The notes under the pieces are model-generated. The model saw nothing but the letters and a program-made list of their open reading frames with translations, did not search any database and had not been told where the DNA came from. This document shows positions 31,902-50,625 of a DNA stretch of 64,000 bases, in pieces. Each line of letters starts with the position of its first letter. The first letter of the stretch is position 1. The DNA comes from Anaerolineales bacterium (GTDB taxonomy: Bacteria; Chloroflexota; Anaerolineae; Anaerolineales; RBG-16-64-43), in contig JAFGKK010000002.1 of the NCBI GenBank assembly GCA_016928575.1, forward strand, positions 65,519 to 129,518. The letters are read 5' to 3'. Both the position numbers and the translations under genes were made by a program.

Positions 31902-34134
31902 TGGCCCCCAGCAGAAAAACGCCGTTCGGCGTGGCCGCGTAGACGTTGGATTGCGAGTCGATCACGATGGAATAGACAACCGTTGCGCCGAGCAGGCCGT
32001 CGTTAATGGAACCCCAATGAATCCCGCCGTCGAAAGAAACGTACGCTCCTCCGTCCGTGCCGGCATAGATGATTTCAGAATGGAATGGATCCACAGCGAC
32101 CGAGTTGACGAAAAGGCCGCCCAATCCGTCGTTGCTGGGATTCCAGGATCGACAGCCGTCTGCGCTGATAAGAATCCCATCCCCCTTTGTGGCCAGGTAT
32201 AGTCTTTGGGGATCGTCGGAAACGATATCCACAGAGGTAGGAACCGCTTCGGGCTCCAGACCGCAAAGTTGCCAGGAGGCCCCGTTGTCTGTCGAAACGT
32301 AGGCCGGAGAACCGTATCCGGTGATGTCGACGGAATAGATTATTTCCGATGGGGCGGGCGGGAAGTAGAAACGGCCATACGGGATGTCTTCGCCCGTATT
32401 GTGCGCCCAGTTCTGACCCGCGTCCATGGAAATGAATAGGCTCCGATTGGGATCCATGGAGATATCCGATACGAAGAGCGTATCCTCGCGGGAACTGACA
32501 TTCAATAGGACGCCCCTATTCGCGGTATCCACAGGGGCGGGAAGGAAATCCCATGTTGTTCCTTGGTTTTTTGAAATCCGGATTGTCTGTTCATGGGCAA
32601 GGTACAAATCGCCGTTCTTTCCGATGGAAAGCCAATATCGCGGCCATTCCACCTCGTATGAGCCTCCAAAAAAGGGGCTGGCTTGTTGCCACGGAATCCC
32701 CCAATCGGGGGAATGGAAAATATAGCCGTAGGCGTCTTCCGCATAGAGGCTTTCATGGGCCGGATCCGTTTTCAGCTTTATCCGCAGGTTCCCCAAACCA
32801 TTCCCGATCTCCGTCCAGCTGATGCCGGAATCGGAGGAAGACAATAATCCGCCCTCGCCCCCGCCCAGCATGCGTGTCCCATCGACCGAAAATGCAACGG
32901 GTGCACAACACCGCTCCGGCAATGGGTTCCATGACAAGCCTGCATTGGTGGAGGAATACCCGCCGTTCACGCCATGGCAATACATTGTGGATGGATTGGC
33001 CGGGTTGACATATAAAGCGCTGCAGGCGATCTGCGCCAATTCGCTCCAATTCTGCCCGCCATCATCCGAGGCATACAGCCTGTTTTCAGATCCCACAGAG
33101 GATGCATAGAGGATTTCCCGGCCGCTTGGGTCCGAGCCGATGGCCATCGCATAAATGCCGGTTTCTTCCAGGCCGAGACGCGTCCAATTCCCGCCGCCAT
33201 CGGTAGAGTGAAAAACACCTGCCGGGCAATCCGAATCTTCCCGTATTTGAGTGGCGTACAGTTTTCCGTTTACCTGCGGATGCACGAGGAAGGCCCCAAT
33301 GGCCGATGGGCAAGGGGAAAGGCTCGTCTCGTTCCAGGTCGTGCCGCCGTCGTTTGAGTCCATCCAGCCATAATCCGGCGCTGCCAGGAAGATATGTTGG
33401 TTGTCGAACGGATCAATCAACACGGATGTATCACCCGCGTAAGAATTTTCCATCCGCGTGTCGATGGCCTGCCATGCGCCGCCGCCATTCACGGTTTTGA
33501 AGATCAGGTTGGACGGTGTGCCGGCATAAAGCGTTTGCGGATTCTTCGGATCGATTGCCAGCCCGGAAATGCCGGCGAAGCTCAAGCCGTTTTGAATCGG
33601 CATCAGAGTAATGCCGCCGTCGAGGGATTTGTAGATCCCGGCGTTGCGTGTGCCGATGTAGACTACATCCGGATCGTTGGGATCGATAACGATGCTGGTA
33701 ATCTCATCCCGCGAAAATTCCTGGCCGGTGGAAAGCCGTTTCCACCTTAAGGGGATGAGCGTGGATGTGAAAGCAGGGAGAAGTTCGGGCGTGCTGGTGG
33801 AATAGGGTGTTGCGGTAAATGGCGGATTTGTTGACGGCGCCGTCGTTTCAGCAGGAGAAGCGATGCTTGGGGAGAAGGCTTTCAGGCGGGGAGCCGACCA
33901 TACGGCCAATCCGACCAGGGCAACGGCTCCCAACGCCGCCCATGATTTGGGATTGTTGTACCAGCGCTGGCGCTTGAGCCGCACCATCCGGGCCAGCAGC
34001 CGGGAAGTGTCTTTGTAGTTCTCGTCGATGGCCAGGAGTTGCCTGAGCAGATCGCTGGCGCGGTCGTAATCCTTTGCCGATAGGGCGGCCTTGGCTTGGG
34101 TGTACAGGCTTTCCAGTTCTTGGTCGTCAGCCAT
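31894..34134 (-). CDS. Single-pass membrane protein: short TPR-like cytoplasmic head, TM, extracytoplasmic Asp-box (BNR) propeller region
   Basis: The start is moved to ATG 34134 (MADDQELESLY..), which overlaps the upstream stop by 1 nt. TM helix WAALGAVALVGLAVW. I count 13 Asp-box-like motifs (e.g. SNDGGTTW, STDGGGNW, SDDGGQNW). Confidence 0.8.
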   Translation of the reverse strand: MADDQELESLYTQAKAALSAKDYDRASDLLRQLLAIDENYKDTSRLLARMVRLKRQRWYNNPKSWAALGAVALVGLAVWSAPRLKAFSPSIASPAETTAPSTNPPFTATPYSTSTPELLPAFTSTLIPLRWKRLSTGQEFSRDEITSIVIDPNDPDVVYIGTRNAGIYKSLDGGITLMPIQNGLSFAGISGLAIDPKNPQTLYAGTPSNLIFKTVNGGGAWQAIDTRMENSYAGDTSVLIDPFDNQHIFLAAPDYGWMDSNDGGTTWNETSLSPCPSAIGAFLVHPQVNGKLYATQIREDSDCPAGVFHSTDGGGNWTRLGLEETGIYAMAIGSDPSGREILYASSVGSENRLYASDDGGQNWSELAQIACSALYVNPANPSTMYCHGVNGGYSSTNAGLSWNPLPERCCAPVAFSVDGTRMLGGGEGGLLSSSDSGISWTEIGNGLGNLRIKLKTDPAHESLYAEDAYGYIFHSPDWGIPWQQASPFFGGSYEVEWPRYWLSIGKNGDLYLAHEQTIRISKNQGTTWDFLPAPVDTANRGVLLNVSSREDTLFVSDISMDPNRSLFISMDAGQNWAHNTGEDIPYGRFYFPPAPSEIIYSVDITGYGSPAYVSTDNGASWQLCGLEPEAVPTSVDIVSDDPQRLYLATKGDGILISADGCRSWNPSNDGLGGLFVNSVAVDPFHSEIIYAGTDGGAYVSFDGGIHWGSINDGLLGATVVYSIVIDSQSNVYAATPNGVFLLGANG

Positions 34135-37100
34135 TATGTTCCTTCCAGTTTGAATATTCCATAAGGGGTGGACGCGTAGACGTTGGATTGCGTGTCGATC
34201 ACGATGGAGTAGACGACCGTCGCCCCCAGCAATCCATCGTTGATCGGATCCCAGTGTTGGCCTGCGTCGAAAGAGATATACACTCCGCCGTTCGTCCCCG
34301 CATACATGGTCTGAGGGTTGTTCGGATCGATGGCAATGGCATGGGCGAACAAGTTGCGGAGGCCGGTATTCATCCTTGTCCAGGAGAGGCAGCCGTCCGG
34401 GCTCGCCATCACGCCGCCGCCCCGCGTTGCCGCCCAAATCCGTTTACGATCTTGAGGATTGACGGCCATCATGGAGATTGTTTCCGTGAACGCGTCGAGA
34501 TCGCCGGGTGGATTGCAGTTTGACCATGTCTCCCCGGAATCGCTGGACCGATAAGGCGGATAATCTCCTTCATTTCCATAAACATATACGTCGGTATCGG
34601 AACCGAAAAAGAGTGAGATGGTTTCACCCTGCCGGAGCTCATCGGTTGGAAAACCGCCACTCTCCTTCCAGGTGTTTCCCTTATCCAAGGAGATTAAAAT
34701 GCGATTGAAATATGGCAGGTACACCTTCCCGTCGATGGAGGGGTGGGCGGCGACAATTCCTGGCGAAATCGGATCGGGGACACCCGGTAAAGATGCCCAA
34801 TTCTTCCCGCCGTCTTGAGAGCGTAGTAAACCGTTGAAGTCGGACCGGAATAACGTCTGGCCATCCGCGCTGAAGGCCAATCCATAACCCTTCTGGGTTA
34901 ATGGACTCCAATTCTTTCCTTTGTCCGGGGAATAAAAGAGAGGAACACCTGGCCATTCCGTTCGCTGTCCTTGCAGATAGAAGCTATTGGTATCGCCGGA
35001 ATTTTGATTTAGTAATAATTCGGTTCGAAATCCTCCCAAGCCGTCGCTTTTATCCGTCCAGGAACTCCCCCCATCCACTGATTCGTATACTACCTCTCCT
35101 CCCACAAGTATTGTGTCGGAAGCACCGGGTTTAATGGCGATCTGAATGATCGTTCCATTCGTCCAGGGGAGCTTTTGCCAGTGTTTTCCCGCATCAATGC
35201 TTTTGAAAAGATCGTTGGTTTCTTTACCACAAACGATCATTCGACCATCCTGAGGGGAAATGGCACAGGCCGTAAACACACCGGTGAGCGGGTGGGTCCA
35301 AGTTGAGCCGCCGTCGGAGGAAACATGAACCCCGTCGCGGGCATAGGCAATAATGGTGTTGCCATCCCGGCTGATCTGGAGATTTTCTCCCCAGCCCAGA
35401 TCTTCGATTTTCGGAGAGGCCAATGACCAAGTGTCTCCGCCGTCCGTGGATCGGAAAACGCCGCCATCCGATGCTCCCAACCCGAAATTCGAGACGAACA
35501 AGGTCTGCGGATCAACCGGCGACTCGACAATCCAACCCGCGTTGGGAGGGCAATATTTCCCGCCGTCACAGAAGGTCGACGGGCGCCAGGAATCTCCTCC
35601 GTCGAAGGATTGATAAACGTTGCTGTTGAGATAATAGAGGTTGTTGGAATTCGTGGGGGAGATGGTGACTCCGCTGAACCAAGTGAAACCCCACCCGATA
35701 TTCGCGGAATTCACGGATTTCCAGTTCGCACCCCCATCCGTGGTTTTATAGATCCCGCCGGGCAACACGCTGGCATAAAGGATCTGCGGATTATTCGGGT
35801 CGATGGCCAGGGTTGAGATCGCGGCGCTTTCCAGGCCGGCGTGCGCGGGAAACCACGAAGCCCCTCCATCGATCGTTTTATACACACCGGCATCCGCCGT
35901 CCCGGCATAGATGATCCCCGGATCCTCCGGATCAAATTTTATCGCCGTGACTTTGCTGCGGGTTAAAAACTGTCCCGCATTCAGCCGGATCCATTGAAAC
36001 GGGATCGGCGTCGGTGGAAGAGTGGGCAAGGGCATTGCGGTTACGGTGCGGGTCGGCGATGCGCCCAACAGGTTGGAGAGGGACGTCGGTTGTGTAGAGA
36101 CGGCGGTCGGGCTTGTCGACGACGGCACCATCCTTTGCAAAGCCAACCCACCCAGCACCAGGATTGCCATTGCTCCCACGCCTCCCCAAAGCCACCGCGA
36201 CTGCCAGAATTTGCGTGTTTTCTGGCGCAGCTCAACCGCCTGGGCCAATATTTGCGAAGCGTCTTTGTAGTCCGGGTTATTAATGACGATGCTTTTCATC
36301 AGGCCGATGGCTTTGGCGTAATTCTTTTTCGCCATTGCCCGCTGGGCTTCGGAATACGTCTGCGCCAGGGATTGGGCGCTTTCCACTTTACCCATCTCCC
36401 CGCGAATCATTTCCGCGTCATCGGGCGCAAGCAATAAAAGCTCGTTCCATGCGGTCAAGGCGTCGCTGAATTTTTCGGCCTTCGATAAACTTTGCGCTTT
36501 TGATTGCAGGGAATTTCGCTGCGCTTCGCGCTGCTGGATCTGATTTGCGGCCAGCCTTTTTTGGACGCTCTCGTCATCCGGCATTAAGGCCAGATATTCC
36601 TTCAGGGATGCGATGGCCGCTTCCCAGTTTTTTTCCGCCTCCATTTGTTTCGACCGCGCCCGGAGGATTTCCAAGCGGGCGGTTTGCAATAATTGACGGA
36701 CTTCCGCCAACCGCTTTTGAAGCGCGGCGTCCTCGGGAGCCAATCGAAGCGCTTCTTCCAACGTGGCCGCCGCGGAATCCAGGTTTTTCGCAGATATCTC
36801 CTTCTCGGATTTTGCGACGAGACTTGCCAAAACCTTTGCTTTTTTCTCCGACTGGACGGACTGAACCCGTTCGATGAGGATCGGATCTTCGGGGGTGTAT
36901 TTCAACGCTTCGGCAAATGCGGACAAGGCTTGCTCATCCCGCCCTTCCTTGAGCGCTTTTTCGGCTTGTTGGCGCTGGATTTCGGCCAAGCGTTGGCGCG
37001 CCTCGGTATGCTCCGCGTTGATGGACAATACGCGTTGAAAGGATTGGGTTCCTTCGCGGATCCGGCCCCGGTCCGCGGCGGCGTTGCCGATCGCCAGATG

Positions 37101-38474
37101 CGCTTCACACAACCCGGACCGGGCCGCAACGTCTTCGTCGTCAATCGCCAATGCCTTCTCAAACTCGACCACCGCCTTCTCATAGGATTTCTGCTCCATA
37201 TACACCAGGGCGATGTTGACCAGGGCCTGGGCATTTTCCGGGGCGACCGCGAGCGCTTCCTGGAAACTTTCAATGGCCTTTTCGTAAACGCCGCTGTCTT
37301 TGAACTCCATCCCAATCTCGATATAGCGGTTGGCGATGGGATTTATCTCGGTCAGTTCCTCGCGCACTTGCTCCAGGGGGCGGTTTTTGCACAACCACAG
37401 TTTGAGCAGGTGGATGACAAAGTGATTGTCCGGAGTGAGCACATCTTTCTCGCGCAAGTGGAGCAAGGCGGATGTCAAATTGGAGTCGCTGAAACGGACG
37501 CGCTGCTTGCGCAGAAAGTCGGCAAGGCCGCGGCTGTCCGCCGGACCGAGCTGTGCGAGGGCCGCCAGGGACCATTTTTCCAGATCCGCGGCCTCGTCCC
37601 AGAGGAATTTTAAATTGACCGTTCCGCGTTCCACCACATCGTCCAGAACGGCTTCGACATCCGATTTGCCGATTTCCCGTTGGCCCGTCCGCTGGCAGCG
37701 CGCGAATAATTCATGACAGATCAGCTGGGTGAAGTATGGATGACCGGAAGCGATCTGATAAATGGAATGGGCGGACGGACGCTGGTAATTAATCAGGCCT
37801 TCCACCGGCAGTGTGATCAGGTTGCGCGATTCATCCTCGGAAAGAAAGCTGATCTTTTTGTACAGGGCCGTTTTAAAAAAATCGGTATACGCGGCCTGCA
37901 TGTTTTCCAGTTTCCGTCCCGAGGAACCGATGGAGAATATGAAATTAAGCCCCTGTTGTTCCAGCAGCCGGCGCAGATAATCGATCAGCGGGCGGGCCAG
38001 CGCTTCCCGGACCTCCGATTCTTCCAAATTGTCAAATTCGTCAAATGTCAGCAGCAGCGAATGGTCGCCAAGAATGGGCTTTAAGCCGGGGATAAATTGA
38101 TGTTCGAAATATTCCAAATCGGCAGTAAAGAGGCCTTTTTCCGGCAACGGAACGTCCAAGTTATGGGCTTGCTTGAGCCCCCGGACAATTTCACGCGCGA
38201 GCCACCATAAAAAACGGTCCAGGGTCGTGTGCGTACGGCCTTGAAAGTCGAAGAAAACCGGGATAAAACGCTCCGGCAGGCGGTTTCCCAGTTGCTTGAG
38301 GACGGATGTCTTCCCCACCCGCCTTTGACCGTGGAGAACCAAGATGTGGTCGGCATACCGTCCGGAAAGGTTATTCCGGATCCAATCAAAGACATCCTCC
38401 CGGCCGAAGAACATCCTGGCTTCGGTAACGGGTGCGCCGGCAATATATGGGTTTACAATTTCGTCCATATTCAC
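34134..38474 (-). CDS. Transmembrane STAND/ATPase_2-like NTPase with TPR array and extracytoplasmic Asp-box (BNR) propeller region
   Basis: 1446 aa. N-terminal NPYIAGAPVTEARMFFGRE, Walker A GQRRVGKTS and Walker B LLLTFDEFD. About 350 aa of TPR-like repeats. TM helix WLWGGVGAMAILVLGGLAL (nt ~36133-36195). 13 Asp-box-like motifs (TIDGGASW, TTDGGANW, STDGGDTW..). Start is GTG 38474 or ATG 38468. Confidence 0.85.
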   Translation of the reverse strand: MNMDEIVNPYIAGAPVTEARMFFGREDVFDWIRNNLSGRYADHILVLHGQRRVGKTSVLKQLGNRLPERFIPVFFDFQGRTHTTLDRFLWWLAREIVRGLKQAHNLDVPLPEKGLFTADLEYFEHQFIPGLKPILGDHSLLLTFDEFDNLEESEVREALARPLIDYLRRLLEQQGLNFIFSIGSSGRKLENMQAAYTDFFKTALYKKISFLSEDESRNLITLPVEGLINYQRPSAHSIYQIASGHPYFTQLICHELFARCQRTGQREIGKSDVEAVLDDVVERGTVNLKFLWDEAADLEKWSLAALAQLGPADSRGLADFLRKQRVRFSDSNLTSALLHLREKDVLTPDNHFVIHLLKLWLCKNRPLEQVREELTEINPIANRYIEIGMEFKDSGVYEKAIESFQEALAVAPENAQALVNIALVYMEQKSYEKAVVEFEKALAIDDEDVAARSGLCEAHLAIGNAAADRGRIREGTQSFQRVLSINAEHTEARQRLAEIQRQQAEKALKEGRDEQALSAFAEALKYTPEDPILIERVQSVQSEKKAKVLASLVAKSEKEISAKNLDSAAATLEEALRLAPEDAALQKRLAEVRQLLQTARLEILRARSKQMEAEKNWEAAIASLKEYLALMPDDESVQKRLAANQIQQREAQRNSLQSKAQSLSKAEKFSDALTAWNELLLLAPDDAEMIRGEMGKVESAQSLAQTYSEAQRAMAKKNYAKAIGLMKSIVINNPDYKDASQILAQAVELRQKTRKFWQSRWLWGGVGAMAILVLGGLALQRMVPSSTSPTAVSTQPTSLSNLLGASPTRTVTAMPLPTLPPTPIPFQWIRLNAGQFLTRSKVTAIKFDPEDPGIIYAGTADAGVYKTIDGGASWFPAHAGLESAAISTLAIDPNNPQILYASVLPGGIYKTTDGGANWKSVNSANIGWGFTWFSGVTISPTNSNNLYYLNSNVYQSFDGGDSWRPSTFCDGGKYCPPNAGWIVESPVDPQTLFVSNFGLGASDGGVFRSTDGGDTWSLASPKIEDLGWGENLQISRDGNTIIAYARDGVHVSSDGGSTWTHPLTGVFTACAISPQDGRMIVCGKETNDLFKSIDAGKHWQKLPWTNGTIIQIAIKPGASDTILVGGEVVYESVDGGSSWTDKSDGLGGFRTELLLNQNSGDTNSFYLQGQRTEWPGVPLFYSPDKGKNWSPLTQKGYGLAFSADGQTLFRSDFNGLLRSQDGGKNWASLPGVPDPISPGIVAAHPSIDGKVYLPYFNRILISLDKGNTWKESGGFPTDELRQGETISLFFGSDTDVYVYGNEGDYPPYRSSDSGETWSNCNPPGDLDAFTETISMMAVNPQDRKRIWAATRGGGVMASPDGCLSWTRMNTGLRNLFAHAIAIDPNNPQTMYAGTNGGVYISFDAGQHWDPINDGLLGATVVYSIVIDTQSNVYASTPYGIFKLEGT

Positions 38475-39456
38475 TCACTTTTATCCTTTGCACGGGTCGC
38501 GATTGGTTCGGACTCTTTATCTATTCATAGCAACTGTTAAGCCATACGTTGCCGCCGGGATCTGTCCCCGGCCAGTGAAAGCCTTCGCGCAACCAAGCGT
38601 CAAAGAAAACCCGCTTCTGGGCGCCGATGTTGCCTCTACTGGCGATACCCAATCGAATCAATTCTCTTGATCCTGTGTCTCTCCTATCAACCATCCCGCG
38701 GTGTGTAAGGAAGTATACCTCTATAGGCGACTGGAGAAAAACGCGAAATGCAGGTCGCCGTACAATCCATCCCCTCCGGAATATCACTCCCCCCAACCAA
38801 ACCCATCCCAGATGCTTTACTTATCCGTTGGAATAATTGGTCGGTAAGGGGTTTGGAACCCGGGAATAGCTGTGGCAGGGTCCCCCAAAAAATGCAACCG
38901 ACCTCATTTCTCCGGATCCGCGAATGGCTGGACGGTCAGGACGGTTTGGAATGCGTTGATCCTTGCCTGGATGGGGGCGTTCTTGAATTGAAATAGCCAC
39001 AAAATTAACAGGCCAATCGTTTCGGATGCGGAATGGAAGGATGATCCGGACATTCCCTATTACAGACCTTCATGAACCGTTCGCAAACTGCGGTTAGCTT
39101 ATCCTTCATTCTGTAAATTCAGTCCGATGGGGAGCGATCTTCTTTATCCTGCCGTCAATCGCCCATGGATCGCATTGAACTCCATCCGCTTTCCGCTCCT
39201 CAATTCCCGTCCGCAGGCAACGAGCGGCCCGGTTCCATCCATCCCATTCCGCCCCCCCGTGATGGCTGCCGGCTGCAGGGTGAATCCGCCATCCCGCCCC
39301 CCCGCTTCCCATGCCACGGGATGCGGGGGAGGATGGCAGGGGCAGGGCGGGATGGCGCCCGGCGCCGCGCTGGGGCGATGCTTCCGCGGCCCGCCCCACG
39401 GCCCGGGCCGATTTCACAATCATCGCCCGGCGGCCGCTCGATGGAAAAATCTAAAT

Positions 39457-40359
39457 CTAAAAATCCCATGCCGGCTCGGTTTCAAGCCGCACGGCGCGGT
39501 TTCCCCGCCTCTCCTTGGCGGCGGAATCGACGATCCCCGTCTCCGCCCCGGCGGGGGTGACGCCGTTCTCCGCGAGGTAGAATTCCACCAGGTTGTCGGC
39601 GGCGAGTTCTTCCATCCCGCCCGAAAGCCACAGCAGGCTGTTGCAAGCGACTTGGTTTCCTTGAATGACCAGGCGGGTGATTTGGTTGCGTTCCGAGACC
39701 ACTCCGCGGCCGCTGCACCCTCCGCCGTAGACGAAAAACGCCACCCCTTTGGTGATGTCCTTCGAGGCGATGGTGTTCGCTTCGATCCGCACCCCGTCCA
39801 CCCGGTTGTCGCCGGCGCCCTCGCCGCCGAACAGGCTGATCCCTTCGAATTGGAAATCCGGCAATTGGTTCGAGAGGATGCGGATGTTCGCCGGCCGCCC
39901 GGTTTCACCCGAAAGCGGCGGATCACCCGGCGCGGGGAGGTAATATTCCCCCGACGCGGCATACATCGTGATCGCGGCCATCTGCGTGCGGAGGATGTTG
40001 CCTTCCACCGGCACGTCCTCCACGGCGTTCTCGCGCAGTGCGGCGCCCGGATCCGGCAGGTAGGAGGAGGAGTCGATCGCCGCGGCGTGGATCGCCACGC
40101 CGTACTCGGCGTCGGCCGAGACTTCGTTGCCGGTGATCTCCACGCCGCGGATGAAGTTGCCGCTGTTGCCCATGTTCCCCGCCAGGAGGAGGATCCCGGT
40201 CGGGCGCGAGGCGTCGCTGCCCACGCCCTGCGGATCCAGGAAGTTGTCTTTTATGACGACGTTCTCCACCAGGCTGTCGTCGGAGAAGGCCGGCGGTCCC
40301 GGGTGGCCGAAGTAGGCGCTGTAAGATACCGCGCCGCGCCGGGGCGGGAGATAAATCAT
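39457..40359 (-). CDS. Right-handed parallel beta-helix repeat-like protein (possibly truncated)
   Basis: 300 aa with periodic ..N.I.GN.. turns (ITGNEVSA, VEGNILRT, IEANTIAS, IQGNQVAC). No signal peptide. Weak call. Confidence 0.35.
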   Translation of the reverse strand: MIYLPPRRGAVSYSAYFGHPGPPAFSDDSLVENVVIKDNFLDPQGVGSDASRPTGILLLAGNMGNSGNFIRGVEITGNEVSADAEYGVAIHAAAIDSSSYLPDPGAALRENAVEDVPVEGNILRTQMAAITMYAASGEYYLPAPGDPPLSGETGRPANIRILSNQLPDFQFEGISLFGGEGAGDNRVDGVRIEANTIASKDITKGVAFFVYGGGCSGRGVVSERNQITRLVIQGNQVACNSLLWLSGGMEELAADNLVEFYLAENGVTPAGAETGIVDSAAKERRGNRAVRLETEPAWDF

Positions 40360-40514
40360 GGATTTTTTTCGCGCAATTTTCCGGCCACCGAAGCGGAAAT
40401 GCGGTCCCGGCTACTCCGCTTCAGAACCAGAGTATTGGGATTGATCTATAATTGGGCATATTCCCTGCTTTTACAAGCGTGGCAAGCCCTAAGAAACGAC
40501 AACACCGGAGCGCT

Positions 40515-42497
40515 ATGGACCAACCACAACTGAACTGGATCGCCAACTTCATCTGGGGAATCGCCGACGACGTGCTCCGCGACCTCTACGTGCGCGGCAA
40601 GTACCGCGACGTGATCCTGCCGATGACGGTGCTGCGCCGCTTCGACGCGGTGCTCGAGCCTACCAAGCAGGCCGTGCTCGATATGAAGAAGAAGCTCGAT
40701 AAGGCGAAAATTACCAACCAGGATCCGGCGCTCCGCCAGGCGGCCGGGCAGGGTTTTTACAACACCTCCAAATTCACCCTGCGCGATTTAAAGGCCCGCG
40801 CCAGCCAGCAGCAGCTCCGGGCTGATTTCGAAGCCTACCTCGGAGGCTTCTCGCCCAACGTCCAGGAGATCCTCGAAAATTTCGAGTTCCGCAACCAAAT
40901 TCCAAGGCTCTCGAAGGCCGATGCGCTGGGCACGCTGATCGAGAAGTTCCTCTCGCCCGAAATCAACCTCAGCCCGAACCCGGTCCTGAATTCCGACGGC
41001 TCGGAAAAGACACCCGGCCTCGACAACCACGCCATTGGGACCGTATTTGAAGAGCTGGTGCGGCGCTTCAACGAGGAAAACAACGAGGAGGCCGGCGAGC
41101 ACTGGACCCCGCGGGACGCGGTGCGGCTGATGGCGAACCTGATTTTCCTGCCGATCGCCGACGAAATCGAATCCGGGACCTACCTGCTCTACGACGGCGC
41201 GCTCGGCACCGGCGGCATGCTGACCGTGGCGGAAGAGACGCTCAAGGAGCTGGCCGGGAAGCACGGCAAGCAGGTCGCCACGCACCTCTACGGACAGGAG
41301 ATCAACTCCGAGACCTACGCCATCTGCAAGGCGGACCTGCTGCTCAAGGGCGAGGGCGAGGCGGCCGACAACATCGTCGGCGGCCCCGAGTATTCCACGC
41401 TCTCCAACGACGCCTTCCCCTCGCGCGAATTCGACTTCATGCTCTCCAACCCGCCGTACGGAAAAAGCTGGAAAAGCGACCTGGAGCGGATGGGCGGCAA
41501 GGGCGGGATCAAGGACCCGCGCTTTGTCATCGAGCACGCGGGGGATCCGGAATACTCGCTGATAACCCGCTCGAGCGACGGCCAGATGCTGTTCCTGGCG
41601 AATATGCTTTCCAAGATGAAGCACGGCAACAAGCTCGGCAGCCGGATCGCCGAGGTGCACAACGGCTCATCGCTGTTCACCGGCGATGCCGGGCAGGGCG
41701 AGAGCAACATCCGCCGTTGGATCATCGAGAACGATTGGCTGGAGGCGATCGTCGCCCTGCCGCTTAATATGTTCTACAACACCGGCATCGCCACCTACAT
41801 CTGGGTGATTGGCAACCGCAAGCCCAAACACCGCGCCGGCAAGGTGCAGCTCATCGACGCCACGCAGTGGTACAAGCCGCTGCGTAAGAACCTGGGCAAG
41901 AAGAACTGCGAGCTCTCGCCTGAAGATATCGAGCGGATTTGCGACGCATTCCTGCGGTTCGAGGAAACTGAGCAATCGAAAATCTTCCCGAACGCCGCCT
42001 TCGGCTACTGGAAGGTGACGGTCGAACGCCCGCTCCGGTTGAAGGGCATCGACCCCGAAAAGGAATATTCGCCGAAGGAAATCAAGGCGCTCAAAGAAAG
42101 TTCCGAGCGCGCCGAGGATGCGCCGCCGGTCATCCGCAAGATTCATAGGAAGGGAACCGCCGCCGATCCGCTGCGCGGATTGTTCCCGGTGACCATCGGC
42201 GGAAAAGCGGCCGTCGTCGAATACGAGCCCGACCCGGACCTGCGCGACACCGAGCAGGTGCCGATGCTGGAAAAGGGCGGCGTCGAGCCCTTCATCCGCC
42301 GCGAAGTGCTTCCGCACGCCGCGGACGCCTGGATCCTCGCCGAGAGCGTCAAGACCGGATACGAGATCAGCTTCACGCGCTACTTCTACAAGCCGCAGCC
42401 GCTGCGCACGCTGGAGGAAATCCGCACCGACATCCTGGCGCTGGACAAGGAAACCAAGGGTCTCTTGGATGAGATCATCGGGGGCAATGGGGCATGA
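40515..42497 (+). CDS. hsdM: Type I restriction-modification system, DNA methyltransferase subunit M
   Basis: HsdM N-terminal domain NWIANFIWGIADDVLRDLYVRGKYRDVILPMTVLRRFD. AdoMet motif YDGALGTGGML. Catalytic NPPYG (MLSNPPYGKSW). The start is moved to ATG 40515. Confidence 0.92.
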   Translation: MDQPQLNWIANFIWGIADDVLRDLYVRGKYRDVILPMTVLRRFDAVLEPTKQAVLDMKKKLDKAKITNQDPALRQAAGQGFYNTSKFTLRDLKARASQQQLRADFEAYLGGFSPNVQEILENFEFRNQIPRLSKADALGTLIEKFLSPEINLSPNPVLNSDGSEKTPGLDNHAIGTVFEELVRRFNEENNEEAGEHWTPRDAVRLMANLIFLPIADEIESGTYLLYDGALGTGGMLTVAEETLKELAGKHGKQVATHLYGQEINSETYAICKADLLLKGEGEAADNIVGGPEYSTLSNDAFPSREFDFMLSNPPYGKSWKSDLERMGGKGGIKDPRFVIEHAGDPEYSLITRSSDGQMLFLANMLSKMKHGNKLGSRIAEVHNGSSLFTGDAGQGESNIRRWIIENDWLEAIVALPLNMFYNTGIATYIWVIGNRKPKHRAGKVQLIDATQWYKPLRKNLGKKNCELSPEDIERICDAFLRFEETEQSKIFPNAAFGYWKVTVERPLRLKGIDPEKEYSPKEIKALKESSERAEDAPPVIRKIHRKGTAADPLRGLFPVTIGGKAAVVEYEPDPDLRDTEQVPMLEKGGVEPFIRREVLPHAADAWILAESVKTGYEISFTRYFYKPQPLRTLEEIRTDILALDKETKGLLDEIIGGNGA

Positions 42498-43186
42498 AGG
42501 GCGATATACCGGAAAAACCTCGTCGTAAATCGCTCCGGCTGCCTAACTACGATTACGCGGCCGACGGCGCCTATTTTGTAACCATCTGCACGGCCGGCCG
42601 CCAATGCCTGTTTGGAGAGGCGGCAGGCGGCCGGGTCATCCTGAAAGACGGCGGTCGAGCAGCGCGGGCGTGTTGGATGGAAATTCCCGCCCATTACCCG
42701 GCGGTGCGATTGGATTCGTTCGTAGTGATGCCGAACCATATTCACGGGATCATCGTGATTGACAATTCGGCGGATATCGGGATGGCGCGGGACGCAGGGG
42801 CGAATGGTATTTCCGCAGGGGCGAACGGTATTTCCGCAGGGGCGAATAATTATTCGCCCCTACGGGGACCCGTGTTGCGGACCGCATCCCGTGGTGCGGA
42901 TGTCCGCGCGGCGGTGCGGTTCCGTTCCCCGTCCAGGACCGTGGGATCCATTGTGCGCGGGTTTAAAATCGGCGTGACGAAATGGTTCCGATCGAACACG
43001 GACGTCGCCAACGTCTGGCAACGCAACTATTACGAACACATCATCCGCGACGAGGCGTCGTTGCGGCGCATCCGCGAGTATATCGCCGCGAATCCTGCGC
43101 GGTGGGCGTACGATGCCGAAAACCAGGAACACGCGCGGGCCGACGGCATTCCGCTCCAGGTTCCGGGCGAGGGTAAACACGTATGA
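42494..43186 (+). CDS. IS200/IS605-like Y1 (HUH) transposase homologue, RAYT-like
   Basis: 230 aa. Motif PNYDYAADGAYFVTICT. HUH motif VVMPNHIHGIIVI. Catalytic-Tyr motif WQRNYYEHIIRDE..IREYIAANPARW. ATGA overlaps with hsdM (42494-42497) and hsdS (43183-43186). Confidence 0.8.
   Translation: MKGDIPEKPRRKSLRLPNYDYAADGAYFVTICTAGRQCLFGEAAGGRVILKDGGRAARACWMEIPAHYPAVRLDSFVVMPNHIHGIIVIDNSADIGMARDAGANGISAGANGISAGANNYSPLRGPVLRTASRGADVRAAVRFRSPSRTVGSIVRGFKIGVTKWFRSNTDVANVWQRNYYEHIIRDEASLRRIREYIAANPARWAYDAENQEHARADGIPLQVPGEGKHV
42794..42860. repeat. 2.5 copies of a 21-nt tandem repeat ending in a perfect 22-nt palindrome, inside the RAYT-like ORF
   Basis: gcaggggcgaatggtatttcc / gcaggggcgaacggtatttcc / gcaggggcgaataattattcgcccc. 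The palindrome ggggcgaataattattcgcccc lies at 42839-42860. The repeat encodes GANGISAGANGISAGANNYSP in frame. Confidence 0.9.
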
Positions 43187-44535
43187 TCGCCGAGCTAAAG
43201 GCTTATCCTAAAATGAAGGACTCCGGCGTGCCGTGGCTCGGGAAGATCCCGTACCATTGGAATATGAGGCGCGCGAAATGGTTATTTCGAAAAATGAATC
43301 GTATCGTTCGCGATTTTGATGAAGTGGTTACTTGTTTTCGCGATGGCTCAGTTACATTAAGGAAGAACAGAAGACTACGTGGATTTACCGAGTCCTTGAA
43401 GGAAATCGGATATCAAGGAATTCGGCAGGGTGACCTTGTAATACATGCAATGGATGCCTTTGCGGGTGCAATCGGGGTTGCTGATTCCGATGGAAAGGGC
43501 ACACCTGTTTATTCGGTATGTAAGCCTATGCAGGCGGCTAACTCGCACTACTTTGCATTTACAGTAAGAGAGATGGCTCGGAGCGCGTGGATTCAAGCCC
43601 TAGCAAAGGGAATACGGGAGAGATCAACGGATTTCCGTTTTGAGGAATTCTCTTCACAATTATTGCCTCTTCCGCCGAGCGGCGAACAAGCAGCCATCGT
43701 CCGCTTCCTCGACTACATGGACCGGCGGATACGGCGATACATTCGCGCCAAGCAGAAGCTGATCAAACTGCTGGAGGAGCAGAAGCAGGCCATCATCCAC
43801 CGCGCCGTCACCCGCGGGCTCGATCCAAACGTCCGCCTCAAGCCGTCCGGCGTGGCGTGGTTGGGGGAGGTGCCGGAGCACTGGGAAATTAGGCGATTAA
43901 AAAACCTATGCTCAATGAGGAGTGGTGAGGGCATTACTGCAATTTCAATCGAGCCGAAGGGTGATTATCCCGTATTCGGTGGTAACGGGATACGAGGTTA
44001 TACATCTCAATATACACATGATGGAAATTTTATTTTACTCGGGCGTCAAGGGGCATTATGTGGAAATGTTCATGTTGCACATGGCCGTTTTTGGGCTTCA
44101 GAGCATGCAGTAGTAACCACACTCCATGGAACCAACGATTTAAATTGGTTAGCTGCAGTATTACGAATAATGAATCTTAATCAATATTCAATAGCAGCGG
44201 CACAACCTGGGCTTGCCGTCGAAAGGATTCAGAACCTTACAATACCAATTCCTCCCAGACAAGAACAGGAGTTTATTGCTGAAAAAATCCAAGGATCAAC
44301 AACAAGTTTAGCGATTGCCATCGAAAAAATGCATCGCGAGATTTCAATTATCCGCGAATACCGCACCCGCCTTATCGCCGACGTGGTCACCGGCAAACTC
44401 GACGTGCGCGAGGCGGCGGCGCGCCTGCCGGATGAGATGGAGGAACCCGAGCCGATCGAAGAAGAATCGGAGAATGGCGCGGAAGAAGCGGAATCCGGTG
44501 AGATGGATGAGGCGCCGGAGGAGGCCGAATCATGA
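43183..44535 (+). CDS. hsdS: Type I restriction-modification system, specificity subunit S
   Basis: Two variable target-recognition regions alternate with two conserved helices: LPLPPSGEQAAIVRFLDYMDRRIRRYIRAKQKLIKLLEEQKQAIIHRAVTRG and IPIPPRQEQEFIAEKI..REISIIREYRTRLIADVVTGKLDVRE. Acidic C-terminal tail. Confidence 0.9.
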   Translation: MIAELKAYPKMKDSGVPWLGKIPYHWNMRRAKWLFRKMNRIVRDFDEVVTCFRDGSVTLRKNRRLRGFTESLKEIGYQGIRQGDLVIHAMDAFAGAIGVADSDGKGTPVYSVCKPMQAANSHYFAFTVREMARSAWIQALAKGIRERSTDFRFEEFSSQLLPLPPSGEQAAIVRFLDYMDRRIRRYIRAKQKLIKLLEEQKQAIIHRAVTRGLDPNVRLKPSGVAWLGEVPEHWEIRRLKNLCSMRSGEGITAISIEPKGDYPVFGGNGIRGYTSQYTHDGNFILLGRQGALCGNVHVAHGRFWASEHAVVTTLHGTNDLNWLAAVLRIMNLNQYSIAAAQPGLAVERIQNLTIPIPPRQEQEFIAEKIQGSTTSLAIAIEKMHREISIIREYRTRLIADVVTGKLDVREAAARLPDEMEEPEPIEEESENGAEEAESGEMDEAPEEAES

Positions 44536-45176
44536 CCGTTCCGGCGCAGCCCAAGATTTATCATATCGTTCATGTGGACCTGCTGGAATCCATCATTGCC
44601 GACGGACAAATCTGATGCGATCGGGAGAAACAAAGGCATCCGCTTACCGGAACTCCCATCGGGATGAGCGGGGTTAAGCGGCGGCGGCTTGAAGAGCTGC
44701 GTCTTTCCAGCCATCCCGACCTGTTCGTGGGGGATTGCGTGCCTTTCTACTTTTGACCGCGTTCGGTCATGCTGTACATGATCGCCCAGGGCAATCATCC
44801 GGAACTAACCTACCATGGCGGGCAGGATCCCATTATCCATCTCGAAGCCGACCTGCGTTCGGTAGTCGCCTGGGCCGATGCAAATGGCCGGCGTTGGGCT
44901 TTCACATTATCCAACGCGGGCGCCCGGTATTTTGAGGACCGGTGCGACCTTGACCGGCTTGGCGAAATAAATTGGGACGCGGTGGAAGCCACCGAATGGA
45001 GGTTATGCAAAGACGGAAAACAAGCCGAATTCCTTCTGGAACGCAGCTTTCCCTGGAGCTTGGTGGAACGGATCGGGGTACATTCGCAGGGAATCTACCA
45101 AAGGGTGGCGAATGCCCTTCCGAAAACGGGCCATCATCCGGGGGCGGAAATCCGCACGGAATGGTATTATCCATGA
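44532..45176 (+). pseudogene. darT: DarT (DUF4433) ssDNA ADP-ribosyltransferase toxin, single frame interrupted by two in-frame TGA codons
   Basis: One frame from ATG 44532 to TGA 45176 reads MTVPAQPKIYHIVHVDLLESIIADGQI*CDRE..FVGDCVPFYF*PRSVMLYMIAQG..WAFTLSNAGARYF..KQAEFLLERSFPW. The in-frame TGAs lie at 44613-44615 and 44754-44756. No frameshift. ATGA overlaps at both ends. Confidence 0.8.
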
Positions 45177-46252
45177 AGGAGACCGCGATGATCGAATATA
45201 AAAGCGGCGACATTTTGAACAGCAAGGCCGACGCGCTCGTCAACAGCGTCAATTGCGTCGGCGTGATGGGGCGCGGAATCGCGTTGCAGTTCAAAACCGC
45301 CTATCCGGACAACTTCAAAGCGTATGCCGCGGCCTGCAAACGGGAGGAAATTCAGCCCGGCCGCATGTTTGTCTTTGAAACCGGCCGGATAGACCCTCCG
45401 CGGTTCATTATCAATTTCCCCACCAAACGCCACTGGCGGGGTAAGAGCCGGATCGAAGATATCGAAGCCGGATTGACGGCGCTTGCGGGAGTCATTCGTT
45501 CCAAGGGTATTCATTCGATTGCGATCCCGCCCTTGGGGGCCGGTCTGGGCGGGCTGGATTGGGCCAGCGAGGTGCGGCCGCGCATCGAGCAAGCATTGAG
45601 TCCGCTGACCGATGTGACCGTTCTCATTTATAAGCCGGAAGGGGCGCCGGCGTCGGACGTCATGAAGCACCGCCGTGATGTGCCAAAAATGACTCCCGGC
45701 CGGGCCGCCTTGGTGGGATTGATGTCCCGCTATCTCGGCGGTCTGCTCGATCCTTTCATTACTCTTCTGGAATTGCATAAACTGATGTATTTTATGCAGG
45801 AGGCCGGAGAGCCTTTACAGCTTCGATATAAGCAAGGTCTCTTTGGCCCGTATGCGGAAAATTTACGCCACGTTTTGCATGAAATCGACGGGTACATGGT
45901 CGCCGGATACAACAACGGCGGCGACGCGCCCCATAAGCAATTAACTCTTGTGCCCGGGGCGGTGGCGGATGCCGAAACTATCCTGAATGAGCATGAGGAT
46001 ACACGCGTTCGTTTCGACCGGGTGGCTTCGCTGGTGGATGGTTTCGAATCGCCGTTTGGATTGGAATTGCTTTCCACCGTCCATTGGGTGATGAAGAACG
46101 AGCCGGTGCGTTCGCAGGAGGAGGTAGTCGATCGCACCTATTCGTGGAACGAGCGCAAGCGTCAGTTTACCCCCCGTCAAATAAAAATCGCAGCGGAGAC
46201 CCTCATGGAAAAGGAATGGGTGTCTCCCCTGCCTGGGCAAATCTCGCAGTGA
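45173..46252 (+). CDS. darG: DarG antitoxin (macrodomain DNA ADP-ribosyl glycohydrolase + C-terminal DarT-binding domain)
   Basis: Macrodomain IEYKSGDILNSKADALVNSVNCVGVMGRGIALQFK..INFPTKRHWRGKSR..IAIPPLGAGLGGLDW. ATGA overlap with darT at 45173-45176. Confidence 0.85.
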   Translation: MKETAMIEYKSGDILNSKADALVNSVNCVGVMGRGIALQFKTAYPDNFKAYAAACKREEIQPGRMFVFETGRIDPPRFIINFPTKRHWRGKSRIEDIEAGLTALAGVIRSKGIHSIAIPPLGAGLGGLDWASEVRPRIEQALSPLTDVTVLIYKPEGAPASDVMKHRRDVPKMTPGRAALVGLMSRYLGGLLDPFITLLELHKLMYFMQEAGEPLQLRYKQGLFGPYAENLRHVLHEIDGYMVAGYNNGGDAPHKQLTLVPGAVADAETILNEHEDTRVRFDRVASLVDGFESPFGLELLSTVHWVMKNEPVRSQEEVVDRTYSWNERKRQFTPRQIKIAAETLMEKEWVSPLPGQISQ

Positions 46253-49200
46253 GCGTCACCGACATCTCCGAACGCGGCCTCGAAAGTCTGATCTGCGCGG
46301 CGTTGACCGGCTCGCCGTGTCTGTCCGCCGAAGGCTCGGCGATGGCGGGCGAAACGGGAGACGCCCAAGCTGTCCATGAACGGCCGGCGGCCTACGGAGC
46401 CGGATGGATCTGCGGCGATCCGGAAGCCTACGACCGCGAATATTGCGTCGACCTCGCCCAATTATCGGCTTTCCTGAACGCGACCCAGCCGGAAACCGCC
46501 GACGCGCTCGAACTCGGCCGCGACGGCCCTGCGCGCCGCTCGTTCCTGGCGCGGTTGCAGGGCGAAATCAGCAAGCGCGGAACCATCGACGTCTTACGCA
46601 ACGGCATTAAGCACGGACCGCACCACATCGACCTGTTTTTCGGAACCCCCTCGCCGGGCAACGCCAAAGCTGCCGAGCGCTTTGCCGCGGACCGTTTCAG
46701 CGTCACCCGCCAGTTGCGCTACAGCCGGGATGAAACCCAGCATTCGCTCGACCTGTGCCTATTCATTAACGGTCTGCCCGTCGCCACCTTCGAACTGAAG
46801 AACAGCCTGACCAAGCAAACGGTCGAGGACGCCATCCAGCAGTACCAGCGCGACCGCGATCCGCGCGAGAGGCTCTTCGAGTTCGGGCGCTGCGTGGCGC
46901 ATTTCGCCGTGGACGACCATGAAGTGCGTTTCTGCACCCACCTCGCCGGCAAGAGCGCCTGGTTCCTGCCTTTCAACCGGGGCTGGAACGACGGCGCAGG
47001 CAATCCACCCAATCCGGACGGCTTGAAAACCGACTACCTCTGGAAGCGAATCCTCACCCGCGACGGCCTCACAGACATTCTCGAAAACTACGCGCAGATC
47101 ATCGAAACCAAGGACCCGAAGTCCGGTAAGAAAAAAGCGGTTCAAATCTGGCCGCGGTTCCATCAGCTCGACGTGGTGCGCAAACTGCTCGCCGACATCC
47201 GGGAAGCCGGCGCCGGCCGGCGCTACCTGGTCCATCACTCGGCGGGGAGCGGAAAATCCAACTCCATCGCCTGGCTGGCGCACCAGCTGATCGGCTTGAA
47301 AAAGAACGACGCCGCTGTCTTCGATTCGATCATCGTCGTCACCGACCGGATCCTCCTCGACCAGCAGATCCGCGACACGATCAAACAATTCGCCCAGGTC
47401 AGCGCCACGGTCGGCCATGCCGAGCGTTCGGGGGACCTGCGCAAGTTCATCGCCGAGGGAAAGAAGATCATCATCACCACGGTGCAGAAGTTCCCCTTTA
47501 TTCTCGATGAGATCGGCAGCGAGCATCGCGGGCGGAAATTCGCGATCATCATCGACGAGGCGCACTCCAGCCAGGGCGGCCGCACCTCGGCGGCGTTGTC
47601 GATGGCGCTCTCCGCGGCCGGAGCCGAGGACGAAGACGAAACGCTGGAAGACAAGATCAACCGGTTGATGGAATCCAAGAAGCTGCTGCCCAACGCCAGC
47701 TACTTCGCCTTCACGGCCACGCCCAAGAACAAGACGCTCGAGATTTTCGGCGAGCCCGAGCCGCAGCCGGACGGCAAGGTCAAGCACCGGCCGTTCCACA
47801 GCTATACGATGAAGCAAGCCATCCAGGAGGGTTTCATCCTGGATGTGCTTAAGTATTACACGCCGGTGGACAGCTACTACAAGCTGGTCAAGAAAATCGA
47901 GGGCGACCCCGAATTCGACACCAAACGGGCGAAGAAAAAACTGCGCCGCTACGTCGAAAGCCACGAACACGCCATCCGGCTCAAAGCCGAGATCATGGTC
48001 GACCACTTCCACGAGCAAGTTTTGGCGCTGAATAAAATCGGCGGCGAGGCGCGGGCGATGGTCGTGACGAGCGGCATCGAGCGCGCAATACAGTACTTCC
48101 ACGCCATCCGCGACTACCTGGCCGAGCGCAAGAGCCGTTACCGGGCGATTGTGGCGTTTTCGGGCGAGCACGAATACGGCGGGGTCAAGGTCACTGAGGC
48201 GTCTCTCAACGGTTTCCCTTCCAGCCAAATCGCCGACAAAATTCAGGAGGATCCGTATCGTTTTCTGATCTGCGCCGATAAATTCCAGACCGGATACGAC
48301 GAACCGCTTCTGCACACGATGTACGTGGATAAGGTGCTTTCCGGGATCAAGGCCGTGCAGACCCTTTCGCGCCTCAACCGGGCGCATCCGAAGAAGCACG
48401 ACGTGTTCGTGCTCGACTTCATGAACGACTCCGACACGATCCAGTTGGCGTTCTCCGACTACTACCGGACGACGATTCTGGCGGAGGAGACCGATCCCAA
48501 CAAACTGCACGACCTGAAGGCATCACTCGACGATTATCAGGTCTATGCACCCGTGCAGGTGGAAGAGCTCGTAGCGCTCTATCTGGGCGGCGCCGACCGC
48601 GACCGGCTCGACCCGATCCTCGACGCCAGCGTCGCGGAATACCGGGGGCGGCTGAACGAGGACGGGCAGGTCGATTTCAAGGGAAAGGCCAAAGCCTTCC
48701 TGCGGACATACGGATTCCTATCCTCGATCCTGCCGTATACCAATGCCGATTGGGAAAAGCTTTCAATCTTCTTAACATTCCTGGTTCCCAAATTACCGGC
48801 GCCGGTGGAAGAAGACCTCGCGCGTGGGATCCTCGAAGCGATCGACATGGACAGTTATCGAGTGGAAAAACAGGCGGCCATCCGGATCCAGCTTCCCGAC
48901 GCTGACGCGGAGATTGGCCCGGTCCCCGCGCTCGGCGGCGGCCACCTGCCCGAACCCGAACTCGACCGGCTTTCCAACATCATCAAAGCCTTCAATGACC
49001 AATTCGGGAACATCCCCTGGTCCGATGCCGACCGGGTACACAAGCTGATCACCGAGGACATCCCCAGCCGGGTCGCTGCGGACAAGGCGTACCAAAATGC
49101 GCGACTGAATTCCGACAGACAAAACGCCCGGATCGAGCACGACAAGGCGCTCGCCCGGGTGATGACGACGGTGCTGAGGGACGACACCGAGTTGTTCAAA

Positions 49201-49525: not shown

Positions 49526-50380
49526 GTGTCCGAAAAAGAATATATTCTATTCTGCGACGAGTCCGATAAGCGCGGCAAATACTATTCCAATTTCTATGGC
49601 GGAGTCCTGGTAGGTGCATCATAATATCAACGCGTTTCAAGGCGCCTTGGAGAAGTTAAAACCGGTCAAAATCTGTTTGGCGAGATCAAATGGGAGAAAG
49701 TCACCGATCGGTATCTTGAAAAATACAAACGGCTTATCCATGCGTTCTTCGAAGAGATCTCCAGGGGGAATCTCCGTGTTCGGGTAATGTTCCACCAGAA
49801 TGCGAATCGGCCGCGGGCTTTGGCGCGCATGCAAGTGGAATTCGAATACTTTCTACTCTATTACCAGTTCATCAAACATGCCTTCGGGCTGGAATTCGCG
49901 CCGGGCCCAATCCGGATGCGCCTGTATTTTGATACCTTCCCCGACACCGAGGAAAAAACCGCGCAGTTCAAGGGCTATCTGCTGGGCCTGACAAAAACAA
50001 AAAGATGGCGCACCGTCGACATCCAGCGCGAGGATATCACGGAAGTGCGCACCCGCAACCATGTCCTCCTGCAATGCCTGGATATCGTATTTGGTTCCAT
50101 GTCATTCCGTTTAAACGATAAGCACAAGGAAAAACTGGCTGATTCGAGCCGGCGGAGAAAACGCACGATCGCAAAGGAACAACTTTACCGCTTTATCTTG
50201 GCGGAAATTGGGAAAATACATCCGAGGTTCAACATTGGCATTAGCACCAGCTTGCATGGAGATGCCAACCGACAGTGGAGTGATCCCTATCTGCATTGGA
50301 ATTTCGTTCCCGCGGATGGAGTGTTCGAATCTACGCTTACCAAACCGCGGAGAAAGGGGAAAAAAGAAAACCCCATCTGA
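49526..50380 (+). pseudogene. DUF3800-family protein interrupted by one in-frame TAA
   Basis: From GTG 49526 the frame reads SEKEYILFCDESDKRGKYYSNFYGGVLVGAS*YQRV..GEIKWEKV..RVRVMFHQN.. and continues into the 197-aa ORF. The N-terminal (Y/F)CDES motif is the DUF3800 hallmark. The TAA lies at 49622-49624. Confidence 0.6.
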
Positions 50381-50625
50381 CCTACATATGTATCTGGCGC
50401 ATAACGTCAGACTTCGGTCAGACAGGGTTTCATTTACGTAGTAAATATAGCATAATAAATAGGTTCTGTCCATAAACGCATTGTTTTTGGCTGGTGTAAA
50501 GGCAGATTCCTGAACTTGCGCATGATTGAACGAAGGGGGAAAACGGGCATAAATCCAAAAGCGATTATCAAGAATAGGCCTGATCGGACAGATAATTGAC
50601 GCATCAATAATCACTGGAGGGGACC

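Follow-up and report, generated by a model that had tools for sequence, protein, structure and literature searches.

DarTG toxin–antitoxin (TA) systems pair the toxin DarT, an ADP-ribosyltransferase, with the antitoxin DarG. The closest described relative of the system analyzed here is DarTG2 in the type I restriction-modification (R-M) operon of the RRDM island of enteropathogenic Escherichia coli (EPEC) E2348/69, where the gene order is hsdM ... hsdS-darT-darG-hsdR (Jankevicius 2016, PMC5179494; PMC12255303). The placement of darT-darG between hsdS and hsdR has been described for islands of this type (PMC12255303; PMC5179494), of which a downstream M48 metallopeptidase and an upstream RptR repressor are further marks. 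Even minute expression of DarT is toxic (PMC5179494), and darTG2 cloned without its repressor acquires inactivating mutations (PMC12255303). When chromosomal TA systems erode, the toxin is inactivated before the antitoxin is lost (PMC13617665; PMC2654758). We analyzed a DarTG locus with the same gene order in a 64,000-nt stretch of an Anaerolineales metagenome-assembled genome (MAG; GenBank assembly GCA_016928575.1, contig JAFGKK010000002.1, positions 65,519 to 129,518 of the forward strand; this whole stretch is called the window). Its darT carries two in-frame TGA codons, and we consider it likely that they record a recent knockout of the toxin by two nonsense mutations, in which the antitoxin gene darG was retained. 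The features of the toxin gene are as follows, in window coordinates.

44517..44524, + strand: Shine-Dalgarno-like run GGAGGAGG, 7 nt 5′ of the darT ATG and within the 3′ end of hsdS, read from the sequence; putative ribosome-binding function
44532..45176, + strand: darT, encoding a DarT2-type single-stranded DNA thymidine ADP-ribosyltransferase; the frame is full length but interrupted by two TGA codons, hence a pseudogene
44613..44615, + strand: first premature stop, TGA at codon 28, next base T (TGA-T), read from the sequence
44754..44756, + strand: second premature stop, TGA at codon 75, next base C (TGA-C), within the VPFYF-C-PRS motif, read from the sequence
44769..45176, + strand: residual 135-codon open reading frame (ORF), the DarT C-terminal fragment (residues 80-214), deposited as MBN1437861.1

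Translation of the window yields one 215-codon darT frame that contains exactly two internal stops and no frameshift, as a preliminary description of this DNA had stated. The stop-masked product matches the DarT profiles from end to end (Pfam PF14487, positions 1-201 of 201, E = 2.6e-58, 197.5 bits against a cut-off of 22.5; NCBIfam equivalog NF048013 toxin_DarT, positions 1-204 of 204, 227.5 bits against a cut-off of 150), PADLOC also assigns it to DarT, and all four of the DUF4433 blocks quoted in that description are present. It likewise matches the structure of Thermus aquaticus (Taq) DarT (7OMV, E = 1.6e-28). In the KQAEFLL stretch of the frame, E166 lines up with Taq position 160, occupied by Ala in the crystallized E160A construct; Taq E160 is the conserved catalytic glutamate of DarT (PMC5179494). 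The frame does not provide an uninterrupted ORF for the whole enzyme, being broken by TGA at codons 28 and 75. By sequence, the gene belongs to the DarT family, but as a pseudogene. The ATGA overlap between its start and the hsdS stop (44532-44535) had been correctly described.

We compared the two interrupted codons with those of 80 orthologous loci from species-representative genomes, whose products are 62-72% identical to that of the window darT. Codon 28 is TGG (Trp) in 67 of the orthologues, with Leu in 11, Ser in one and Arg in one, while codon 75 encodes Cys in all 80 (TGC in 52, TGT in 28) and lies in the invariant VPFYFCPRS block. TGA occurs at neither codon in any of the 80. The nearest relative (P0001/L082), an intact gene 80% identical and directly 3′ of an hsdS, has TTG at codon 28 and TGC at codon 75, and one further homologue (P0059) has Cys at position 28. 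A metagenome pattern scan for the Cys75 context returned 0 matches with TGA, compared to at least 120 with TGY. Trp TGG and Cys TGY are each one substitution from TGA, and so each stop lies a single step from the common ancestral codon. The residues of the relatives at these two sites, which the preliminary description had proposed to compare, thus turned out to be Trp (TGG) and Cys (TGY), with TGA in no relative, and they favour the knockout that it had listed among its options. Neither stop is conserved or recurrent as TGA; in a metagenome locus (L132, Ga0105048_10178833), the Trp28 codon has independently become TAG, with an intact darG downstream.

The proposed course of events is that two independent single-base nonsense substitutions inactivated darT, the first most likely by converting Trp28 from TGG to TGA and the second by converting Cys75 from TGC or TGT to TGA. 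Ribosomes that initiate at the darT ATG would then end after 27 residues, upstream of nearly the whole enzyme, and consequently no active ADP-ribosyltransferase would be made. The product of the residual 135-codon ORF is predicted to be inactive, as both the N-terminal YHIxH block and the counterpart of Taq R51 are missing from it; the Glu of KQAEF is kept. We also considered split-protein complementation by the darT fragments, which we judged unlikely; the possible products 1-27, 45-74 and 80-214 would part the YHIxH/R51 region from the catalytic Glu. The antitoxin gene, intact and with its own ribosome-binding site, would still be translated, and the operon would now amount to a type I R-M system with an orphan DarG. 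The loss may reflect drift or selection against a costly toxin, and the second stop would either have arisen neutrally after the first or have been selected since a single leaky UGA left residual toxicity. The locus would then stand at the beginning of the toxin-first erosion known from chromosomal TA systems.

As a separate observation, the second TGA lies within a small perfect hairpin (44754-44769, UGACCG-CGUU-CGGUCA), directly followed by the next in-frame ATG (44769). Within this hairpin, the A of the stop codon is paired with a U, where an ancestral C or U would mismatch. The position of the stop within the hairpin is probably a coincidence.

Apart from its stops, the darT frame shows no excess decay. 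Among columns conserved to at least 97%, R17L and I48V are the only missense changes private to the window gene, compared to 0-4 in intact homologues. A relative-rate test, with the consensus of the 80 orthologues as the outgroup, counted 13 amino-acid changes in the window lineage and 17 in the intact sister L082 (p = 0.58). We employed this amino-acid test instead of the ratio of nonsynonymous to synonymous substitution rates since, with proteins 80% identical, synonymous sites are expected to be saturated. These counts suggest either that the stops are recent relative to the split from the nearest known relative or that the gene is still constrained; under a knockout, the lack of extra decay in the rest of the frame would make it recent relative to that split. 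A six-frame scan of the window for other split genes was too noisy in this GC-rich sequence.

Disruption of the toxin gene alone recurs elsewhere. We surveyed 120 metagenome loci (L093-L212), fetched as the positive control for the Cys75-TGY pattern from a total of at least 120; having been selected for an intact Cys75 motif, they are biased against finding darT disruption. Their darT genes were intact in 96 cases, cut by contig ends in 8 and disrupted in 16. In these same loci, the disruption rate was 16/112 for darT and 3/85 for darG among evaluable genes, even though darG is 1.65 times longer. After length normalization, the excess in darT held both for all events (16 of 19 in darT, p = 0.0004) and for stops and frameshifts only (11 of 14, p = 0.008). 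The species-representative genomes (L002-L081) showed one disrupted darT in 80 and no disrupted darG in 79, the one case being a TAG near codon 32 (L017). From this small survey, disruption in environmental DarTG loci appears to be several-fold commoner in darT than in darG.

The lesions themselves are varied. Six of the 16 metagenome cases carry nonsense codons, namely the TAG at Trp28 already mentioned (L132), a TAG at W122 together with a TGA (L151), a TAG at W148 (L160), a TAG (L170), a TAG at the Gln position Q191 (L198), and a TGA with a frameshift (L211). The stops at Trp codons in L132, L151 and L160 require only a single G-to-A transition, from TGG to TAG or TGA. Seven further loci are frameshifted (L102, L103, L128, L135, L202, L165 and L205), two have 5′-truncated darT (L142 and L153) and one has a 3′ deletion (L123). 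Another locus (L083) has a darT frameshift near codon 57 beside an intact darG. Lastly, in a family of 19 contigs (P0155; L085-L092; ENA ERZ27298991 and others), an IS3-family insertion sequence (IS) element with HTH_Tnp_1 and rve ORFs replaces the first ~45 darT codons; its transposase ORF overlaps the remaining 168-codon darT ORF, and intact darG and hsdR follow. An intact darG likewise accompanies the stops in L017, L151, L160, L170 and L198, the frameshifts in L102, L103, L128, L135, L165 and L205, and the deletion in L123. Our literature search found no report of darT pseudogenes or in-frame stops, nor of a bias toward disruption of darT over darG in DarTG systems.

The preliminary description had offered a recent double-nonsense knockout, leaky read-through and a consensus or sequencing artefact without choosing among them; the measurements favour the first, lend the second no positive support and weaken the third. 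An assembly or consensus artefact, or a minor allele, would mean that the dominant genotype is TGG and TGY and that the stops came from errors or from a collapsed polymorphic population. The source is indeed a MAG, but an independent Logan assembly of run SRR13394437 contains a 2,438-bp contig that is 100% identical to window positions 44374-46810 over 2,437 bases, both TGAs included. The two assemblies come from one read set and different assemblers, and their agreement makes an assembler-specific error less likely. Moreover, it would be a strange coincidence if two substitution errors had fallen in the operon's single toxic gene and each had produced a stop. The flanking operon genes contain no internal stops. 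No intact near-identical darT allele was found among 5.8 billion clustered proteins, the best intact match being 80% identical; the DarG, HsdS and DarT-fragment clusters at 90% identity have one member each, and the genome scan that yielded the 80 loci did not return the MAG from which the window comes. An artefact is, in our estimate, distinctly unlikely. That TGA is a stop codon here, as the preliminary description had held, is borne out by ORF468, hsdM, ORF230, hsdS, darT and darG, which all terminate with TGA; HsdS, DarT and DarG each end where their homologues do. An alternative genetic code in which TGA is a sense codon is rejected, as these six operon genes terminate with TGA at ends common to homologues. 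A narrower form of recoding would read UGA as selenocysteine (Sec) or another residue and make this DarT a selenoprotein with Sec at Cys75. A TGA exactly at an invariant Cys (80/80) is the classic signature of Sec/Cys homologue pairs, and one homologue, P0059, has Cys at position 28. However, Trp or Leu is the usual residue at that position, no redox role of Cys75 is known for DarT, the counts of TGA at codon 75 are zero in the genomes and the metagenome matches alike, and the six terminating TGAs of the same operon stand against it. The 60 nt after each TGA contain no fold resembling a selenocysteine insertion sequence (SECIS; z = -1.02 and -1.17, with 28 and 29 of 200 shuffles folding at least as well), and an Rfam scan of 44300-45400 gave no match even at E <= 1. 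Lacking a SECIS-like fold, an Rfam match and any TGA-bearing homologue in the 80 genomes or at the metagenome Cys75 site, this recoding is rejected as exceedingly improbable.

Several observations nevertheless weigh against the double-nonsense knockout, and part of them would be expected if leaky read-through controlled the toxin's dosage, with near-cognate tRNAs (Trp or Cys) occasionally decoding both UGAs, trace amounts of full-length and possibly wild-type-like DarT being made, and the gene being kept by selection. Both are TGA, which is the leakiest of the stop codons. A random substitution in darT creates a stop in about 4% of cases, 24-27% of such stops being TGA, and two TGAs would arise by chance with p ~ 0.06, which is a weak hint and no more. 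Near-cognate misreading of UGA inserts Trp or Cys, and the stops stand at Trp and Cys positions; these are, though, simply the codons that lie one substitution from TGA. The second stop has the TGA-C context, which is the weakest termination context in E. coli. A frame without other decay fits continued selection as well as recency, darT keeps its strong Shine-Dalgarno-like sequence, and if the first stop sufficed the second would be neutral, in which case at least one further stop amid so few conserved-site changes is only moderately likely (~0.2, a rough estimate). The population may also be polymorphic, both assemblies resting on one read set. The toxicity of DarT at minute levels (PMC5179494) also fits read-through. 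What speaks against read-through is that none of the 80 orthologous genome loci shares either stop, that the metagenome matches lack the one at Cys75, that no structured element follows either stop (z of -1.0 and -1.2, and no Rfam match), and that the other disrupted darT genes are plain knockouts, mostly by TAG, frameshift, IS insertion or deletion. In addition, read-through rates are typically 1e-2 to 1e-4 per UGA, and two UGAs in series would multiply these rates to a practically null yield. We consequently regard dosage control by read-through as unlikely. A related and far less probable proposal is that the UGAs silence DarT until UGA decoding is perturbed, for example by the UGA-suppressor tRNA of a code-4-like recoded phage or by inhibition of RF2; if this were true, translation would then yield full-length DarT, position 28 would again be Trp, and the infection would abort. 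In a milder variant, constitutive trace read-through may set an ultra-low toxin dose. The sole tRNA gene in the 64-kb window is tRNA-Ser(GGA). On balance, the double-nonsense knockout of darT remains the explanation that we favour.

The remainder of the operon is consistent with a retained antitoxin within a type I R-M system. Its genes run in the order hsdM, a 230-aa ORF, hsdS, darT, darG and hsdR, with the following features besides darT.

40452..42497, + strand: hsdM, type I R-M methyltransferase, its true start probably slightly 3′ of 40452 (Pfam, homologues)
42494..43186, + strand: 230-aa ORF (ORF230) that separates hsdM from hsdS and is joined to each by an ATGA overlap (NCBIfam REP_Tyr_transpos, 60.6 bits, short of the 80-bit cut-off; Pfam Y1_Tnp, E = 5e-4)
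43183..44535, + strand: hsdS, type I R-M specificity subunit, its stop overlapping the darT start as ATGA (Pfam, homologues); deposited as MBN1437859.1
45176..45181, + strand: darG Shine-Dalgarno sequence AAGGAG, 6 nt before the ATG at 45188, read from the sequence
45188..46252, + strand: darG, antitoxin with a macrodomain ADP-ribosyl glycohydrolase and a C-terminal DarT-binding domain, intact (NCBIfam, PADLOC); deposited as MBN1437862.1, 354 aa
46249..49281, + strand: hsdR, type I R-M restriction subunit, likely start GTG at 46249, overlapping the darG stop as GTGA (Pfam, homologues)

The darG product matches the NCBIfam equivalog NF048014 antitoxin_DarG over its full length (positions 1-338 of 338, 464.5 bits against a cut-off of 250) and the PADLOC DarG profile (E = 2.4e-136). 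Residues N22, K80, H82 and W83 are conserved relative to Taq and Mycobacterium tuberculosis (Mtb) DarG; the roles of such DarG residues, the catalytic Lys (Taq K80) and N22 among them, have been described (PMC5179494). The C-terminal part matches the C-terminal domain of Mtb DarG (7yk3_B, E = 4.6e-20). The preliminary description had placed an ATGA overlap between darT and darG, which appears to be a minor misreading. The alignments of all 81 DarG homologues begin with the Met at 45188, as does the deposited protein, and darG probably starts at this ATG rather than at the one overlapping the darT stop (45173). With its own Shine-Dalgarno sequence, translation of darG would be independent of ribosomes finishing darT. 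The darT-darG pair sits between hsdS and hsdR, a placement shared by about a quarter of the 81 related loci.

Other observations concern the neighbouring genes. The 230-aa ORF weakly resembles REP-associated tyrosine transposases and has a homologue in only one of 81 related DarTG loci (L064); it is an unusual passenger within a type I R-M operon. The hsdR frame is open from a TTG at 46084, overlapping the last 169 nt of darG, and several homologous loci also align over the overlapping stretch. Directly upstream, a 468-aa ORF (ORF468; 39127-40533, + strand) overlaps hsdM and has no Pfam, NCBIfam or PADLOC match; with respect to RptR, this lack of a profile match is what was found upstream, and no search aimed at RptR was made. 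Just 3′ of hsdR, an unannotated 197-aa ORF (49787-50380, + strand) has no Pfam match, and an M48 peptidase was not detected in it at E <= 1e-5. Its 3′ end is overlapped by an Rfam DUF3800-VIII RNA motif (50367-50431, - strand; 63.3 bits against a gathering score of 40.2). Three large genes lie upstream of the R-M operon (29703-38474, - strand), and they may form a signalling or defence cluster adjoining the R-M/DarTG island.

29703-31901, - strand: Ser/Thr kinase fused to a STAND NTPase (nSTAND2)
31894-34437, - strand: BNR/Sortilin-repeat protein
34134-38474, - strand: AAA-ATPase/TPR/BNR protein, 1,446 aa

These results bear on how such loci are annotated. The deposited 135-aa 'DUF4433 domain-containing protein' is the tail of a darT pseudogene, and the island is better scored as a type I R-M system with an orphan DarG than as an active DarTG defence system. 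More broadly, the darT-biased disruption matters where defence-system catalogues call DarTG functional from the presence of both domains, and it fits the known model of toxin-first erosion. No new mechanism is opened by the locus unless read-through is shown experimentally.

Compared to the EPEC RRDM island, the locus shares a DarT of the thymidine-type family and a DarG that is a macrodomain protein with a C-terminal domain. It differs in the two nonsense codons of darT, in the extra REP-associated-tyrosine-transposase-like ORF between hsdM and hsdS, in the lack of a detected M48 peptidase in the ORF just 3′ of hsdR, and in its host, which belongs to the Chloroflexota and not to the Gammaproteobacteria. 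The likeness to bacterial selenoprotein genes and programmed UGA read-through is limited to an in-frame UGA where homologues have Cys; unlike those genes, darT here has no SECIS-like structure and no Sec-containing homologues, its UGA is not conserved, and its other UGA stands at a Trp/Leu position. A further parallel is offered by TA systems that erode toxin first, as in the decay of ccdO157, the inactivation of hok/sok and a Photorhabdus survey (PMC13617665; PMC2654758), where the toxin is point-mutated and the antitoxin is intact, as it is here. Unlike the antitoxins of those systems, DarG is an enzyme and could go on serving a purpose of its own, for instance by clearing DNA of ADP-ribose that a foreign DarT has attached; the present case also comes from a single MAG rather than from across a phylogeny. 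Taken together, the locus is best read as an ordinary toxin pseudogene in the known DarTG2/type I R-M arrangement.

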